From Alphaproteobacteria bacterium (GTDB lineage: Bacteria; Pseudomonadota; Alphaproteobacteria; Bin95), in NCBI GenBank assembly GCA_963665325.3, contig OZ224045.1:1536001-1600000 (forward strand): a DNA stretch of 64,000 nucleotides, given 5' to 3'. The notes beneath the pieces are model-generated. The model made no database searches and was not told the origin of the DNA. It saw nothing but the letters and a program-made list of their open reading frames with translations. Positions 1,045-35,997 of this stretch are shown here, piece after piece (position 1 is the first letter of the stretch; each line of letters starts with the position of its first letter). A program made the translations under genes and the position numbers.

Positions 1045-3939
1045 ATGCTCAGGAAAAAGACCAACGGGGTTGCGAGACGCCCCCAGCGGACTTCGATCCT
1101 GCCCAACATTTCGGAGGCATCGGTCGACCGGCGGACCTTCCTGCGGGGCTCGGGCCTCGCGATCGGAGGCCTGGCCGCCATCGGTGCTGCCGGCGGCATG
1201 GTGACGAGGGCCGAAGCGCAACAGGCGGCAATGGGCGCAAGCGCGACCGCGAAGTCCGTCTGCACGCACTGCTCGGTCGGTTGCACCGTGATCGCCGAAG
1301 TCGATAACGGCGTGTGGGTCGGACAGGAACCCGGGTGGGACAGCCCGTTCAACCTCGGCGCGCATTGCGCCAAGGGCGCGGCCGTGCGCGAGCATGCGAA
1401 TGGCGAACGCCGCCTCAAATACCCCATGAAGAAAGAGGGCGGCGAGTGGAAGCGCATCAGCTGGGACCAGGCGATCGACGAGATCGGCGACGGCATGATG
1501 TCCATTCGCGAACAGAGCGGCCCGGACAGCGTCTACTGGCTGGGATCGGCGAAGTTCAGCAATGAGCAGGCCTACCTGTTCCGCAAGTTCGCGGCCTACT
1601 GGGGCACGAACAATGTGGACCACCAGGCCCGCATCTGCCACTCGACCACGGTTGCAGGCGTTGCGAACACATGGGGCTACGGCGCCATGACCAACTCCTA
1701 CAACGACATCCACAAGAGCCGTGCGATCTTCCTCATCGGCGGCAACCCCGCGGAGGCGCATCCGGTATCGCTGCTGCATGTGCTCCGGGCCAAGGAGCAG
1801 AACAACGCTCCGTTGATCGTGTGCGACCCGCGCTTCACGCGCACCGCCGCCCACGCCGACGAGTATGTCCGCTTCCGGCCTGGCACCGACGTGGCGCTCA
1901 TCTGGGGCATTCTCTGGCACATCTTCGAGAACGGGTGGGAGGACAAGGAGTTCATCCGCACCCGCGTCTGGGGCATGGACCAGATCCGCGAAGAGGTCGC
2001 CAAGTGGACGCCTGAGGAAGTGGAGCGCGTGACCGGCACGCCCGGCTCGCAGCTTCGCCGCGTCGCCCGCACGATGGCGAACAACCGTCCCGGCACCGTG
2101 ATCTGGTGCATGGGCGGCACCCAGCACACCCAAGGCAACAACAACACGCGCGCCTACTGCGTGTTGCAGCTCGCGCTGGGCAACATGGGCACCTCCGGCG
2201 GCGGCACCAACATCTTCCGCGGCCACGACAATGTGCAGGGCGCCACCGACCTCGGCATCCTGTCGCACACGCTGCCCGGCTATTACGGCCTTTCGGGCGG
2301 CGCCTGGGCCCACTGGGCGCGTGTCTGGGAAGAGGAGCTCGACTGGCTGAAGGGCCAGTTCGCGATGCTCGAAGGCGCTGACGGCAAGAAGAAGCCGCTG
2401 ATGAACCTGAAGGGCATCCCGGTGTCCCGCTGGATCGACGGCGTGCTCGAAGACAAGGCGAACATGGACCAGCCGGACAATGTCCGGGCCATGGTGCTTT
2501 GGGGCCATGCGCCGAACTCGCAGACCCGCGGCAAGGAAATGAAGACCGCGATGGAGAAGCTGGACATGCTGGTCGTGATCGACCCGTATCCCACCGTCTC
2601 CGCCGTGCTTCACGACCGCACCGACGGCGTCTATCTGCTGCCGGCCTCGACGCAGTTCGAGACCTACGGGTCCGTTACCGCATCGAACCGCTCGATCCAG
2701 TGGCGCGACAAGGTGGTGGATCCCGTGTTCGAGAGCCTGCCCGACCAGAACATCATGGCGAAGTTCGCCAAGAAGTTCGGCTGGGCGGACCGCTTCTTCC
2801 GCAACATCAAGGTGGAAGAGGGCGACGCTCCGCTGGTCGAGGACATCACGGGCGAGATCAACCGCGGCATGTGGACGATCGGCTACACCGGCCAGTCGCC
2901 GGAGCGGATCAAGCTGCATATGGCCAACCAGCACACCTTCGACAGGACGACGTTGCAGGCGGTTGGCGGTCCCGCCGACGGTGACTATTACGGCATGCCC
3001 TGGCCTTCCTGGGGTCCGCCGGAAATGGGCCACCCCGGCACGCCCAACCTCTACGACATGTCAAAGCCGGTGGCAGAAGGCGGTCTGACCTTCCGCGCCC
3101 GGTTCGGCGTGGAGCGCAACGGCGAGAACCTGCTGGCGGAAGGTGTCTATTCGGTCGGCTCCGAGATCCAGGACGGCTATCCCGAGTTCACCATGCAGAT
3201 GCTGATGGACCTCGGGTGGGACGGGGATCTGACGGACGCCGAGCGGGCGGCCATCGACGCCGTGGCAGGGCCGAAGACCAACTGGAAGACCGACCTCTCG
3301 GGCGGCATCCAGCGGGTCGCGATCAAGCATGGCTGTGCGCCGTTCGGCAACGCCAAGGCGCGGACCGTGGTGTGGAACTTCCCGGATCCGGTGCCTCTGC
3401 ACCGCGAGCCGCTCTACACCCCGCGGCGCGACCTGGTGGCGGACTATCCGACCTATGAGGACCGGAAGTTCTACCGCTTGCCGACCATGTATGCCTCGAT
3501 CCAGAAGCAGGATTTCTCGAAGGACTACCCGATGATCCTGACTTCGGGCCGCCTCGTGGAATATGAGGGCGGTGGCGAGGAATCGCGGTCGAACAAGTGG
3601 CTCGCCGAGCTCCAGCAGGACATGTTCGTGGAGGTCAACCCGAAGGACGCCAACGATCTCGGGCTGCGCAACGGCGCGCAGGTCTGGGTCGAGGGCGCGG
3701 AGGGCGCCAGGGTCAAGGTCATGGCCATGGTCACCAACCGTGTCGGTGTCGGTGTCGCCTTCATGCCCTTCCACTTCGGCGGGCATTTCGAAGGTGCGGA
3801 CCTGAGGCACAAATATCCCGAAGGTGCCGATCCCTTCGTGCTGGGCGAAAGCTCCAACACGGCGCAGACCTACGGCTATGACTCAGTCACGCAGATGCAG
3901 GAGACCAAGACCACTCTCTGCAAGATCTACGCGGCCTGA
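1045..3939 (+). CDS. fdhA: formate dehydrogenase alpha (catalytic Mo/W-bisPGD) subunit, Cys-type
   Basis: Tat motif DRRTFLR; 4Fe-4S motif CTHCSVGC...CAKG; active-site QARICHSTT; RGHDNVQG. Confidence 0.95.
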   Translation: MLRKKTNGVARRPQRTSILPNISEASVDRRTFLRGSGLAIGGLAAIGAAGGMVTRAEAQQAAMGASATAKSVCTHCSVGCTVIAEVDNGVWVGQEPGWDSPFNLGAHCAKGAAVREHANGERRLKYPMKKEGGEWKRISWDQAIDEIGDGMMSIREQSGPDSVYWLGSAKFSNEQAYLFRKFAAYWGTNNVDHQARICHSTTVAGVANTWGYGAMTNSYNDIHKSRAIFLIGGNPAEAHPVSLLHVLRAKEQNNAPLIVCDPRFTRTAAHADEYVRFRPGTDVALIWGILWHIFENGWEDKEFIRTRVWGMDQIREEVAKWTPEEVERVTGTPGSQLRRVARTMANNRPGTVIWCMGGTQHTQGNNNTRAYCVLQLALGNMGTSGGGTNIFRGHDNVQGATDLGILSHTLPGYYGLSGGAWAHWARVWEEELDWLKGQFAMLEGADGKKKPLMNLKGIPVSRWIDGVLEDKANMDQPDNVRAMVLWGHAPNSQTRGKEMKTAMEKLDMLVVIDPYPTVSAVLHDRTDGVYLLPASTQFETYGSVTASNRSIQWRDKVVDPVFESLPDQNIMAKFAKKFGWADRFFRNIKVEEGDAPLVEDITGEINRGMWTIGYTGQSPERIKLHMANQHTFDRTTLQAVGGPADGDYYGMPWPSWGPPEMGHPGTPNLYDMSKPVAEGGLTFRARFGVERNGENLLAEGVYSVGSEIQDGYPEFTMQMLMDLGWDGDLTDAERAAIDAVAGPKTNWKTDLSGGIQRVAIKHGCAPFGNAKARTVVWNFPDPVPLHREPLYTPRRDLVADYPTYEDRKFYRLPTMYASIQKQDFSKDYPMILTSGRLVEYEGGGEESRSNKWLAELQQDMFVEVNPKDANDLGLRNGAQVWVEGAEGARVKVMAMVTNRVGVGVAFMPFHFGGHFEGADLRHKYPEGADPFVLGESSNTAQTYGYDSVTQMQETKTTLCKIYAA

Positions 3940-32400: not shown

Positions 32401-32706
32401 GCCGAGGGTGAGCAGCCGGCAGAGGCGGCCGTAGGCGGCCCGGTCGCGGGGGTAGCAGAGCAGCGAGGCGCCATCTGCGAGGTCGAGCCGGGCCCCGGTC
32501 AGGAGGCGGATGTCGGCCCGCTTCGCCGCCATATGGGCGCGCACCGCGCCGGCGAGCGTGTTGCGGTCGGCGATGCCGATGGCCGCGAGCCCGAGCCGAG
32601 CGGCCTCTTCTACCAGCTCCTCCGCATGGGAGGCGCCTCTGAGGAAGCTGAAATTGCTGACCGCCTGCAATTCCGCATAAGGAATTTTGTCCGACATGCG
32701 GCTCAT
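29488..32706 (-). CDS. dnaE2: error-prone DNA polymerase DnaE2
   Basis: [13 protein letters not shown] domain, [27 protein letters not shown]-terminal SRDFR; start overlaps the imuB stop. Confidence 0.96.
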
Positions 32707-34253
32707 CCGTAAAGCCCGTGGATATACCAGCGGGGCGGCTTCTTGCCATCGGTGTCCCGGTAGAGCCCGGCGCGAAAGAGCCAGTAGCGCCGGCCTTCCG
32801 TGTCCTCGACGCGGTAATAGTCGCGCGGCCTGTCTTCGGGGCCGCCGGCCCACCATTCCGGTTCGATGCGCTCGGGGCCTTCGGCGCGGGCGATGCGGCG
32901 GCGCAGCCGGCGCCAGGCAAACAGCGCCGGCGGCCCGTCCGGCAGCTCGGCGATGACGTCCACCGGCTCGGGCCGGTCGAACAGGCGGAAGGGCCGTTGC
33001 GGCAGGCCCGGCCGCACAGGCCATGCCGCGCCCTCCCGGCCGGGCGCCGCCCGCCGCTCGGCGCGCTCCGGCAGATGGCTCTCGACCGCTTCGAGGCGGG
33101 AGACCGACCCTTCGCCCAGGCGGGCTTGCAAGCGGTCGATCAGGGGGCCGAGTTCGTTGCTACCGCGCCCGCCCTCCGCCAGCCGAAATTGCTCATGCGC
33201 GAGCGGCTCGGCGCGGACGGCGTGGAGCGCCATTGCGTCGATCCCGAAGCCGGGGCCCACGGTCTCGATCTTCCCCTCGAAAAGGCGCAGCAGATGCGCA
33301 CCGTCGCGGGTGGCGCGCGCCGTCGAGACGCGGCGCTGCGCCGTGCCGCCATCCACCCGGCAGAACAGGAGCGAGAGTTCCCGCGCGCCGAGCCCGTCGC
33401 GTTCCAGCGAGGCGCAGAGGCCTTCCATCAGCCGGGTGAGCGCCGCCTCCAGCCCGGCGAGGTCGATCAGCGGTTCCGGGAAGGCGAGGCGCGCGAGGCA
33501 GGCGGGCGGCGGCGGCAAAGACGCGACCGGATCGGGGCGGCGGCCGAGCGCCCGGTCGAGGCGTTCCAGAACGGCGCCGCTCTGCCGGCCGAACCGGCGT
33601 GCGAGCGACGGGCGGGGCAGGGCGTCCACCGCACCGATTGTCGTCAGCCCGAGACGGCGCAGCAGGCGGGCGTCCTCGGGCGCGATCCGAAGCGCCTCGG
33701 CCGGCAGCGCCTTAAGCGCCGCGAGGGTGCCGCCGGGCGCGGCGATGCACCGGCCTTCCCCGCCGAAGCGGGCGAGTGCCCAGGCGGCGCCCGGCATATC
33801 GGCAAGGCCGGTCCGGACCTCGAAGCCGAGCCCTGCAAGGCGCGCCTCGACCTCTGCCGCCATCGCCGCCTCGCCGCCGAAAAGATGGGCGGCTCCCGCA
33901 ATGTCGAGCAACAGGCCGTCCTCGCCATCGACCGCGCAGCAGGGCGTAAAGCGGTTGCACCAGAGCGCCAGGCGTTCGAGCCCGCGCCGGTCCTCTGCCG
34001 GCCGGGCTTCGGCGGCGGCGAGGCGGGGCAGCAGGGCGCGGGCGTCGGCGAGGCGCATGCCGGGCGCGAGCCCCTCGGCTTCCGCCTGCCGGTTGACCGC
34101 CGTCAGCACCGTCCCGTGGCGGCCGGGCGCGGTAAGCGCAAACGGCACCGGCTCAGCCGGCGGCTTGCGCGAGGGCAGGGCGGCGGGCCGCCGTGCGCGG
34201 CGCAGCCGGTCGATCGGCCAGCGCGGCAGCCACACCGAAATCACCCGTCTCAC
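32703..34253 (-). CDS. imuB: Y-family polymerase-like ImuB
   Basis: [38 protein letters not shown]. Confidence 0.93.
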
Positions 34254-34965
34254 GGTTCCACTCCACAGTACAGGTCACGGGCCGTCCGCCCCGGCAACGC
34301 AGCAGTTCGAGGCGCCAGCGCGGCAGGCCGGGCGCGGCGGCGTCGATCGGGTCGGCGCCTCCCGGCAGTGCCGCAATCCGCCAGCGCGAAAAGGCGGCAC
34401 TCGCCGGCCCGAGGCTGTCGCGGCGCAGCAGCAGGGCGGGGGTCAGGCTCTCGCGGGCGGCGAGCGCAAGCCGGCGGCTCAGGGTGAAATCGAGGCTTTC
34501 GACCTCGCCCAGTACCGCCGCCAGGCTGGCGCTGCGCAGGCCTTCCTCTATGGCCCAGGAAACATCCCGATCGCGGCGGGCGGAGAGCAACAGCAGGTCG
34601 GCCGGTTCGAGGCCGAGGTCCCGCCAGCCCGGCCCGTAGAGCCGGCCGAAGGGGCTCGCCCGGCTCTGGCAGACCAGCACGGCGCGCCGCCCGTCCCGGC
34701 GTTCGAGCCGGGTAATGAGCGCGGCAAGAAAGGCAGCGGCCGCCGGTCCGTCTCCCGGTGCGCTGCTGCCTGCCTCATGTAGCCCGCCCATTGCCAGTCC
34801 CCGCTCCGGCAAGGCCGCATCCAGGGCGCCGAGGCCGAACCGCCAGGCCTCCGCCGCCCCGTCCCCCGCCGGCTCCGCAACGGCTGTCCGACGCTCCAGC
34901 AGCGCTATCTGTCGGCGCAGCGCGGCAAGCTTGGCGGGGTTCTTGCGGGGGAAAACAGACAACAT
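34153..34965 (-). CDS. imuA: ImuA (RecA-like) mutagenesis protein
   Basis: LDAALP..GL..GGLHE, WAIEEGLRS, RRLALAA, LLRCRGG; start re-set to ATG 34965. Confidence 0.9.
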   Translation of the reverse strand: MLSVFPRKNPAKLAALRRQIALLERRTAVAEPAGDGAAEAWRFGLGALDAALPERGLAMGGLHEAGSSAPGDGPAAAAFLAALITRLERRDGRRAVLVCQSRASPFGRLYGPGWRDLGLEPADLLLLSARRDRDVSWAIEEGLRSASLAAVLGEVESLDFTLSRRLALAARESLTPALLLRRDSLGPASAAFSRWRIAALPGGADPIDAAAPGLPRWRLELLRCRGGRPVTCTVEWNRETGDFGVAAALADRPAAPRTAARRPALAQAAG

Positions 34966-34967
34966 AA

Positions 34968-35000
34968 GTTCATTATTTGTTCCAGTTACGGATGAGTCAA
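34968..35000 (-). promoter_or_regulatory. sigma70 promoter with overlapping alphaproteobacterial LexA (SOS) box
   Basis: GTTC-ATTATTT-GTTC at 34968-34982; minus strand TTGACT-17nt-AATAAT, 6 nt before the imuA ATG. Confidence 0.88.
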
Positions 35001-35094
35001 TAGGGAGGAGAGCCCTCTGCCCCTTGACCGGCCCGGCCGTCTGGCGCACAGAATTGCCGGCAGCGTCGCCGAACGAACCGACTGGGCCCGGCCG

Positions 35095-35625
35095 ATGACC
35101 GCTATCGACACGATGCAGGACAGTGACTGGCCCGAGGTCCGCGCCATCTACCGTGCGGGCTTGAAGACCGGCATTGCCGCCTTCATGAAAAATCCGCCGA
35201 GCTGGAAGGCATGGAACAAAGGTCATCTGGCCGTCGGCCGGCTCGTCGTCCGGGGCAGCGACGGCCGCACGGTCGGCTGGGCGGCGCTCACGCCCGCGCC
35301 GGATACGTGAGGCGCTCCCGGCGTCGCTGAGGTCAGCGTCTATGTCGGCGAAGGTGCGCAGGGGTCGGGCGCCGGAACCGCCCTGCTGGAGGGCTTGGTC
35401 GCAGCCTCCGAGGCGGAGGGCTACTGGACCCTGCAGGCGCAGATCATGGCCGCGAACCTGCCCAGCATCGCGCTCCACCGGAAATGCGGCTTCCGCGAGG
35501 TCGGTTTCCGCGAGCGCTACGGGCATCTCGACGGCGTGTGGCACGATGTCTTCCTGTTCGAGCGCCGCAGCGTCCGCGCCGGCGGGCCGGGTCTGCCGAC
35601 AAGGAGCTGCGACGAGGCGGGCTGA
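35095..35625 (+). CDS. GNAT N-acetyltransferase (phosphinothricin-acetyltransferase-like) with in-frame TGA at codon 72; candidate selenoprotein, alternatively a pseudogene
   Basis: Track ORFs 35095..35310 and 35395..35625 share a frame; read-through gives GWAALTPAPDT-U-GAPGVAEVSVYV...AQGSGAG...NLPSIALHRKCGFREVG; hairpin follows the TGA. Confidence 0.8.
35318..35348 (+). promoter_or_regulatory. putative bacterial SECIS element
   Basis: CCGGCGT-CGCTG-AGGT-CAGCG-TCT-ATGTCGG two-part stem, GGT-containing loop about 20 nt after the TGA. Confidence 0.6.
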
Positions 35626-35643
35626 CGACGGATCGGGGCCGGG

Positions 35644-35997
35644 TCAGGGCTCGCGCGAGAGGCCGCTCGCTTCCAGCGCCTTCAGATAGGCGTCCCAGAG
35701 TTCTGACCGGCGTTCGCCGAGTTCGCGCAGATAGGCCCAGCTGTAGATGCCGGTGTCGTGCAGGTCGTCGAACACCAGACGGACGGCGTAATTGCCTTCG
35801 GGCAGGATTTCGATGATGCCGACATGGGCGCGACCCGAAACCAGCGTCTTGCGCCCAGGGCCGTGGCCCTGCACTTCGGCGGAGGGGCTCTCGACGCGCA
35901 GGAGCTCGGCCGGCAGGGCGAAATTCGCGCCGTCGTCGAAGGCGACATGCAACACACGCCCAGCTTTGGAATAGCGCAACTCCGTCGGGAGGCTCAA
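35644..35997 (-). CDS. DUF971 (gamma-butyrobetaine hydroxylase-like N-terminal domain) protein
   Basis: [32 protein letters not shown]. Confidence 0.9.

Follow-up and report, generated by a model that had tools for sequence, protein, structure and literature searches.

Can a reading frame that is interrupted by a single in-frame TGA still encode an intact enzyme? This question is raised by a locus in a 64,000-nucleotide stretch of the genome of an Alphaproteobacteria bacterium (contig OZ224045.1, positions 1,536,001 to 1,600,000 of the forward strand; hereafter the window, whose positions are counted from its first letter). In a preliminary description, two short open reading frames (ORFs) at this locus were proposed to be one gene for an acetyltransferase of the GNAT family, with the TGA specifying selenocysteine (Sec). 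The frame was confirmed: a lone in-frame TGA (35308-35310) forms codon 72 of a 176-codon frame, which gene callers render as an ORF of 71 residues and a short downstream ORF starting from TTG 35395. Taken together, the comparisons described below make it very probable that the locus is an intact gene for a GNAT selenoprotein of 176 residues in which this TGA is translated as Sec. The gene and its critical codon are located as follows.

35095..35625, + strand: coding sequence of the candidate GNAT selenoprotein, 176 codons, with the start codon ATG at 35095 and the terminal TGA at 35623-35625.
35308..35310, + strand: in-frame UGA, codon 72, predicted to be read as Sec and located in one column across orthologues.

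The TGA proved to be neither specific to this strain nor a sequencing error, either of which had been named as grounds for abandoning the proposal. Orthologues were sought with the read-through protein in 61 genomes (the source genome and 60 relatives). A TGA-containing orthologue was found in the source genome and 13 of 16 other genomes of the same genus (82-95% identity) as well as in six genomes of three further genera (62-70% identity). The TGA column was identical in all 20 orthologues from the four genera and lay inside the motif PD[T]-U-GA[PA]GVAEVSVY, in an ungapped alignment. A scan of contigs from one genome per species, with a marine relative as the query, yielded 68 loci, comprising 30 intact loci with TGA at the column, 34 with another codon and one decayed copy (L120), with the partial loci L122-L124 left out. 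According to their record titles, the 30 TGA loci belong to Alphaproteobacteria (Rhodospirillaceae, Hyphomicrobiaceae and others), SAR324, a metagenome-assembled genome (MAG) labelled Deltaproteobacteria and one MAG labelled Pseudohongiella. In a metagenome scan, 80 loci were kept, 17 with TGA and 63 with another codon. The intact loci with TGA thus amount to 67, with identities ranging from 49% to 95%. The decayed copy (L120:2001-2511, from a MAG labelled Beijerinckiaceae) has retained the TGA, carries GAAEVAEVCVY in place of the motif and suffers an extra stop and loss of frame about 30 codons further on. Contigs from three sequencing runs covering 35308-35310 (DNA runs of two studies, with one DNA run possibly the source sample, and one RNA library) showed the TGA unchanged, with no alternative letter.

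Purifying selection acts on both halves of the frame. Pairwise dN/dS values (ratios of nonsynonymous to synonymous substitution rates) were calculated by the Nei-Gojobori method for 19 orthologues (171 pairs, 140 of them with finite dS in both parts), giving medians of 0.19 for the upstream part (61 codons) and 0.156 for the downstream part (101 codons, tail included). Relaxed selection on the downstream half, the third refuting outcome named at the outset, was therefore not seen. The codons right after the TGA are conserved at the protein level in all orthologues, and an ATG stands at the site equivalent to the start codon in all 36 distinct ones.

Downstream of the TGA, the sequence folds into a candidate selenocysteine insertion sequence (SECIS), whose parts are given here.

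35318..35348, + strand: whole bipartite hairpin, with the lower stem CCGGCGU (35318-35324) / AUGUCGG (35342-35348) and the bulge UCU.
35324..35339, + strand: invariant 16-nt SECIS core, with the stem CGCUG (35325-35329) / CAGCG (35334-35338) and the loop AGGU (35330-35333).

The hairpin is the minimum-free-energy (MFE) fold of the 45 nt past the TGA (-18.7 kcal/mol). Its 16-nt stretch TCGCTGAGGTCAGCGT, which begins 14 nt past the TGA (positions 17-32 after the T of the TGA), did not differ among the 34 distinct 48-nt segments. In the hairpin region, all 25 distinct TGA genes encode Ala by GCT, Glu by GAG, Val by GTC and Ser by AGC, whereas 14 non-TGA homologues with the same peptide, G[VI]AEVS[VI], never use GCT (0/14), encode Glu by GAA in nine cases, use three different Val codons and employ both AGT and AGC for Ser. 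Elsewhere in the gene, most invariant columns of degenerate residues use several codons. Since the synonymous sites are frozen in the TGA genes alone, it is the RNA that is constrained, and only in the genes with TGA. The published model of bacterial SECIS elements (bSECIS) specifies a loop of 3-9 nt, an upper stem of 4-16 bp, G in the first two loop positions, a distance of 16-37 nt between UGA and loop, and an MFE of -7.5 kcal/mol or lower (PMC13188914). With its 4-nt loop, 5-bp stem, a G at loop position 2 that is followed by another G and a UGA-loop spacing of 19 nt, the hairpin lies within all of these limits, so that the bacterial SECIS geometry ascribed to it in the preliminary description holds against the published constraints. 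When the hairpin was enforced, the MFE was -9.4 kcal/mol or lower in all 34 sequences; without this constraint, the hairpin still appeared in the MFE fold of 27 of them. A scan of 35000-35700 against Rfam, with E values up to 10, returned three chance-level matches and no SECIS family.

The residue that the TGA replaces is indicated by the homologues. Among full-length database proteins, the closest were at most 59% identical. The consensus of 20 database homologues reads GWAALSPVSxRCVYAGVAEVSVYVG, and the TGA aligns to its Cys without gaps, in agreement with the family pattern given in the preliminary description (ALSPVSxRCVYAGVAEVSVYV, with the TGA on the Cys). Cys occupies the TGA column in 112 of the 119 closest listed full-length homologues with a recognisable motif and is the commonest residue at this position among representatives of 50%-identity clusters (30 of 113). 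The presence of Cys in the nearest relatives is the usual mark of Sec sites. Homologues with TGA and homologues with Cys at the column, which were to be looked for together with a conserved hairpin, were hence both found. A tree was calculated from 106 proteins (22 Sec forms, 70 random and five chosen homologues, and nine paralogues) based on 165 of 272 columns, with the tail mostly trimmed and the loop kept. All 22 Sec forms fell on one side of a branch with a support of 96 in the Shimodaira-Hasegawa-like approximate likelihood ratio test (SH-aLRT), to which the loop columns may add, and they were nested among Cys-bearing members. The putative Sec clade is thus a distinct one, nested among PAT/ArsN1a/YncA-like amino-acid N-acetyltransferases.

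A second hallmark of the clade is located at the C terminus, where an extra tail with a Cys (TRSCDEAG) had been reported and is indeed present.

35581..35610, + strand: C-terminal extension G163-G-P-G-L-P-T-R-S-C172, with Cys172 encoded at 35608-35610.

All 36 distinct orthologue proteins end with GG[PAHLQ][GND]LP[TV]xxC followed by 0-16 residues, and G163, G164, L167, P168 and C172 are invariant in the orthologue alignment. The tail was found in every intact TGA locus and in no non-TGA locus; each intact orthologue examined combines the TGA with the upper hairpin and the tail Cys. Two Firmicutes-labelled proteins with Cys at the column and the tail GGPxxCGKERVL (P0007 and P0013) were considered as the Cys form of the clade and rejected, as the tree places them with ordinary members from Bacillota; their tail may represent a separate, Cys-Cys solution along the same lines.

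The genome also contains the complete Sec machinery, a point on which the preliminary description had made its proposal depend. The selA gene (C1:746606-747682) lies adjacent to selB (C1:744702-746570), a selD match is located at C1:979117-980004, and a tRNA-Sec gene (selC) with the anticodon TCA is found on contig C5. The selD match sits in an open frame of 730 residues, compared to 311 positions in the model, and this frame is either a fusion or a mere long open frame in G+C-rich DNA. SelA is encoded in 41 of the 61 sampled genomes, among them all 20 carriers of the TGA gene, and the gene was absent from the 20 genomes without a SelA match; these genomes are kin, and the co-occurrence is thus no statistical test. 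A non-exhaustive scan of the genome for in-frame TGAs with a coding-like G+C content at third codon positions on both sides and a hairpin gave 26 candidates, the GNAT gene among them. Seven further sites were as follows.

C1:260225, C1:697660, C1:963829 (- strand), C3:671079, C3:64481, C5:230482 and C4:442847, all outside the window: four sites with the motif ...D-U-GSC-[TS], one with W-U-PYC, one with T-R-G-U-T and one with V-U-PVC.

Judged by their motifs, we take these to be four UGSC-containing proteins, a Prx-like UxxC protein, a Prx TxxU protein and a UPVC GrdB/PrdB-like selenoprotein. A Sec-containing formate dehydrogenase was not found in the genome, with none of its 11 molybdopterin oxidoreductase matches having an in-frame stop, and the GNAT gene would therefore be one of the few genes maintaining the Sec trait in this organism. 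The window itself contains a molybdopterin oxidoreductase gene without in-frame stop (1123-3927, + strand, corresponding to C1:1537123-1539927), whose 968-residue product is the best match to formate dehydrogenase alpha (207 bits, below the cut-off). Elsewhere, TGA serves as a stop in the same organism, terminating both the GNAT gene and a paralogue (C1:2513602-2514117). The latter had been flagged as a second GNAT gene with one TGA and was discarded, being an ordinary paralogue of 169 residues with Pro at the column and the TGA as its own stop.

What kind of enzyme would the read-through product be? The 176-residue protein matched the Pfam GNAT model PF00583 with 51.6 bits (cut-off 20.7), compared to 37.7 bits for the C-terminal half alone; the N-terminal half alone had no Pfam match. 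The best NCBIfam model was that of ArsN1 family A (NF040503), with 111.3 bits under a cut-off of 170, and the phosphinothricin N-acetyltransferase model (NF040502) gave 53.8 bits under a curated cut-off of 300. The best sequence match in the PDB had an E value of 2.7e-15. An AlphaFold2 (AF2) monomer model based on 44 aligned sequences reached a mean predicted local distance difference test score (pLDDT) of 92 and a predicted template modelling score (pTM) of 0.88. It superimposed on the structures of PAT, BAR, PA4866, YncA and ArsN1 with template modelling (TM) scores of 0.80-0.86, and the top 46 among the Foldseek matches listed were GNATs, mostly of the PAT type. Two elements typical of the family are recognisable downstream of the TGA.

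35329..35331, + strand: codon for Glu79, near-invariant in 44 family members and located at the stem-loop junction of the SECIS.
35359..35376, + strand: Q89-G-S-G-A-G94, acetyl-CoA pyrophosphate loop, with G92 and G94 invariant in two family alignments.

Glu79, presumably the general base of PAT-type GNATs, aligns in PDB entries 9igk and 2bl1 with the Glu of the strand ...VEDSVYV / ...VEHSVYV. The segment Q89-G94 we take to be the Q/RxxGxG/A motif that binds the acetyl-CoA pyrophosphate in GNATs. The candidate protein hence shares with GNATs of the PAT/BAR/ArsN1/YncA type (PDB 9igk/9igl, 5dwn, 5t7d/e, 5jtf/5wph/6m7g, 2bl1 and 3dr6; NF040503) the same fold, the strand with the Glu, the CoA loop and, toward the C terminus, the W-H-D...ERRS strand. 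Unlike the PAT/ArsN1 types, the Sec form has Sec instead of Cys and the added C-terminal tail GGxxLPTxxC, and where they have the substrate motif S-x-R-C-V-Y, it reads P-D-[TN]-U-G-A in Alphaproteobacteria or S-S-T-U-G-Y in SAR324-type forms.

The position of Sec72 in the model points to the substrate site. Located seven residues before Glu79, Sec72 lies in a loop (residues 68-76) between two strands (59-67 and 77-84), the second of which begins with the Glu79-bearing sequence GVAEVSVYV, and the loop segment P69-D-T-U-G-A74 aligns with R-P-R-A-A-Y of PDB 9igk. According to the PpArsN1 study (PMC6465285), the substrate site of each chain is entered by Arg75, Ala76 and Arg77 of its partner and, in one ligand pose, also by the partner's Tyr80; Arg75 and Arg77 seem to control entry to this site, and Val158 of the same partner chain forms part of its lining. 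Going by motif spacing, without a direct alignment to PpArsN1, Sec72 would correspond to the residue after Arg77 and, with the same offset, V152 would correspond to Val158. If V152 is equivalent to Val158, the tail would therefore exit next to the substrate pocket, and Cys172, 20 residues past V152, looks to be on a tail long enough to reach back. The Arg-x-Arg...Tyr substrate loop of the ArsN1/PAT type is not present, both Arg residues and the Tyr being lost in the alphaproteobacterial forms; the SAR324-type forms (S-S-T-U-G-Y) retain the Tyr.

These elements suggest the following sequence of events. Upon arrival of the ribosome at UGA72, the hairpin CGCUG-AGGU-CAGCG 14 nt downstream would recruit SelB with Sec-tRNA(Sec), and Sec would be inserted without termination, a step that represents standard bacterial Sec decoding. 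In the folded protein, Sec72 would take the place of the Cys in the S-x-R-C-V-Y-A-G motif, in the loop before the Glu79 strand. Acetyl transfer from acetyl-CoA is probably retained, because the CoA motifs and Glu79 are kept. The acceptor would be other than phosphinothricin or arsinothricin, at least in their canonical binding mode, because Arg-x-Arg and the Tyr are lost and the scores fall below the equivalog cut-offs. Finally, Cys172 of the added tail could pair with Sec72 as a selenenylsulfide, and the pair could act as a redox gate of the site or hold a thiol-reactive or metalloid substrate.

This last step is the most tentative. The strict association of the tail Cys with the TGA would fit both ideas of the preliminary description, a Sec-Cys switch and a metalloid-related substrate. 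Thioredoxin reductase and methionine sulfoxide reductases are selenoenzymes whose resolving Cys is distant or C-terminal, and the GNAT form likewise combines Sec with a Cys on a flexible terminal segment, which suggests a selenenylsulfide cycle. In contrast to these enzymes, it has an unrelated fold and chemistry, with an acyltransferase as the host and no reductase partner encoded nearby. The monomer model gives low confidence for the tail, whose pLDDT averages 73 for residues 161-170 and 52 for residues 171-176. We regard it as plausible, though somewhat more likely to be wrong than right, that Sec72 and Cys172 form a selenenylsulfide, either to gate the site or to bind a soft, thiol-reactive or metalloid substrate. 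It is rather unlikely that Sec72 and Cys172 capture the substrate covalently (through Se-S or Se-As bonds to a thiol, selenol or trivalent-arsenic amino acid) or that Sec72 carries the acetyl group as a selenoester.

The second of these possibilities can be stated as an explanation in its own right, in which Sec72 is the acyl acceptor, forming a selenoester from acetyl-CoA and then passing the acetyl group to the substrate, with Cys172 protecting or recycling Sec. GNATs of the PAT/ArsN1 family carry out direct transfer in a ternary complex, which speaks against such an intermediate. In its favour, Sec72 is placed seven residues ahead of Glu79 in a loop that in PpArsN1 lines the acceptor site, and the canonical Arg and Tyr residues for substrate binding have been lost; in PpArsN1, however, the loop serves the substrate site of the partner subunit and not a thioester (PMC6465285). 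We consider this route improbable.

A different alternative concerns the decoding itself: the TGA may be read through without selenium, with a near-cognate tRNA inserting Trp, Cys or another residue, or the hairpin may have some other RNA function. We infer the selenium in the polypeptide from sequence, which taken by itself would also permit near-cognate read-through, and several observations weigh against the selenoprotein reading at this point. The upper stem never varies and thus offers no covariation in favour of pairing. The lower stem is paired in 80% and unpaired in 20% of the cells across the 34 sequences; two of its pairs show double changes, and its covariation score was matched by 99 of 500 shuffles and is not significant. 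RNAalifold retained the upper stem and two further pairs only, and in a single copy from the metagenomes (L137) the upper stem is interrupted by a C-A mismatch. Of the bipartite hairpin in the preliminary description, the upper part consequently stands as a conserved element, whereas the lower stem is present at its coordinates without significant covariation. Most selenoprotein families have a Cys-for-Sec orthologue, and none was found in the tail-bearing clade in searches of the database, the genome contigs and the metagenomes. Some database records show other residues at the column, namely Trp in P0003, P0004 and P0122 (173-residue calls on contigs of <1.1 kb), Leu in P0002 and Gly in the fragment P0218. 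We take the Trp to be a mistranslation, because a locus with 97% identity to P0004 (L057) has TGA. The contigs of the RNA library span 35258-35346, across the TGA, and 35317-35479; they lend weak support to transcription and, as RNA libraries can hold DNA, do not prove it. On the other side, the hairpin conforms to every bSECIS constraint, the gene is confined to carriers of SelA in the sample described above, and the nearest relatives have Cys at the column. Moreover, TGG or TGC would be cheaper than TGA, yet neither occurs in any examined locus of the tail-bearing clade. Read-through without selenium is accordingly very unlikely.

Even less credit can be given to a two-piece enzyme, in which one GNAT fold would be assembled from the first 71 residues and a C-terminal peptide with a start of its own. 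While the halves do stand as separate database records, there is no in-frame ATG, GTG or TTG between the TGA and the GVAEVSVYV strand, so that this downstream part can be reached only by reading the TGA. The first in-frame start past the TGA is TTG 35395, 29 codons on and already past both Glu79 and the CoA loop, and the protein-level conservation of the codons straight past the TGA in all orthologues shows that they are translated.

A pseudogene, produced by a nonsense mutation that split a PAT-like GNAT gene and left its downstream half to decay, can be dismissed with near certainty: although standard gene callers yield two short ORFs, databases carry the halves and the relative L120 is truly decayed, the TGA stays at one column in all 67 intact loci over distant taxa, the downstream dN/dS is low, the tail and ATG are conserved in 36 of 36 orthologues, the other loci are unlike L120, which displays what decay looks like, and the range of identities rules out copies of one contaminant.

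The surroundings of the candidate selenoprotein gene give no clue to its substrate, because they differ among loci: in the neighbourhoods of 12 divergent loci, we found no shared partner gene and no ars or phosphinothricin context. In the window, the upstream neighbour (32703-34253, - strand) is an ImuB-like Y-family polymerase gene (Pfam IMS and IMS_C). It is adjoined, with an overlap of about 100 bases, by an ORF without Pfam match (34153-34950, - strand), and the two may form an imuA-imuB mutagenesis cassette. The downstream neighbours, also on the - strand, encode a GBBH-like_N (DUF971) protein, a Trm112-like protein, a protein with a LON substrate-binding domain and a thioredoxin-TPR protein. 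In the region 34850-35750, the GNAT gene showed no site resembling a promoter or a terminator. The sole sigma-70-like promoter match in this region (34972-35000, - strand; 10 of 12 positions) faces away from it and toward the upstream - strand genes.

How does such a gene compare to selenoproteins already on record? Like catalogued selenoproteins with a bSECIS in the coding region, of which the same genome has UGSC-containing and Prx-like examples, the GNAT form combines a UGA with a small stem-loop carrying an apical G at 16-37 nt, and it likewise has Cys homologues at the Sec column and a predicted dependence on selABCD. Unlike them, it contains no UxxC or CxxU motif, its candidate partner Cys being 100 residues away, on the tail. 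No GNAT or acetyltransferase is listed among the 119 prokaryotic selenoprotein families and subfamilies of the 2026 catalogue (PMC13188914, Table 1). The main texts of four further reports, PMC13326102 (BSepDB), PMC9312934, PMC12013277 (deep-Sep) and PMC2398784 (GOS), contained no true match to a GNAT, acetyltransferase or acyltransferase selenoprotein, with their supplements outside the scope of this search. Literature searches that paired selenoprotein with GNAT or acetyltransferase returned nothing relevant. In NCBIfam release 20, no selenoprotein model matches the read-through GNAT protein and no model claims it at its cut-off. The family thus looks to be uncatalogued, and a mention in supplementary family lists, foremost that of BSepDB, is possible.

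In the public databases, the Sec clade is represented by halves of 71-72 and 79-99 residues or by 173-residue forms with W at the TGA, and the pieces go by the names 'phosphinothricin acetyltransferase' or 'GNAT family N-acetyltransferase'. The expectation that standard pipelines would misread the gene as broken is borne out by these records. As the family is recorded solely in the form of shortened or mistranslated proteins, selenoproteome counts and GNAT annotations for its carriers are wrong. The family is not rare, extending over many Alphaproteobacteria and SAR324-type marine bacteria, and a single 90%-identity cluster of the marine form holds 322 members. For annotation pipelines, the invariant 16-nt hairpin provides a ready search key.

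Nearly all selenoproteins are oxidoreductases. If true, a conserved Sec in the substrate loop of a GNAT would add an enzyme class to them, next to the Sec form of arsenite methyltransferase, which is an example of a selenoprotein that is not an oxidoreductase (PMC13188914, Table 1). The small size of the protein makes it a tractable case for asking what role selenium plays outside classical redox sites. If Sec72 does take a working part in the active site of an acyltransferase, by capturing the substrate or carrying the acetyl group, selenium chemistry would here be put to use in acyl transfer instead of redox catalysis.

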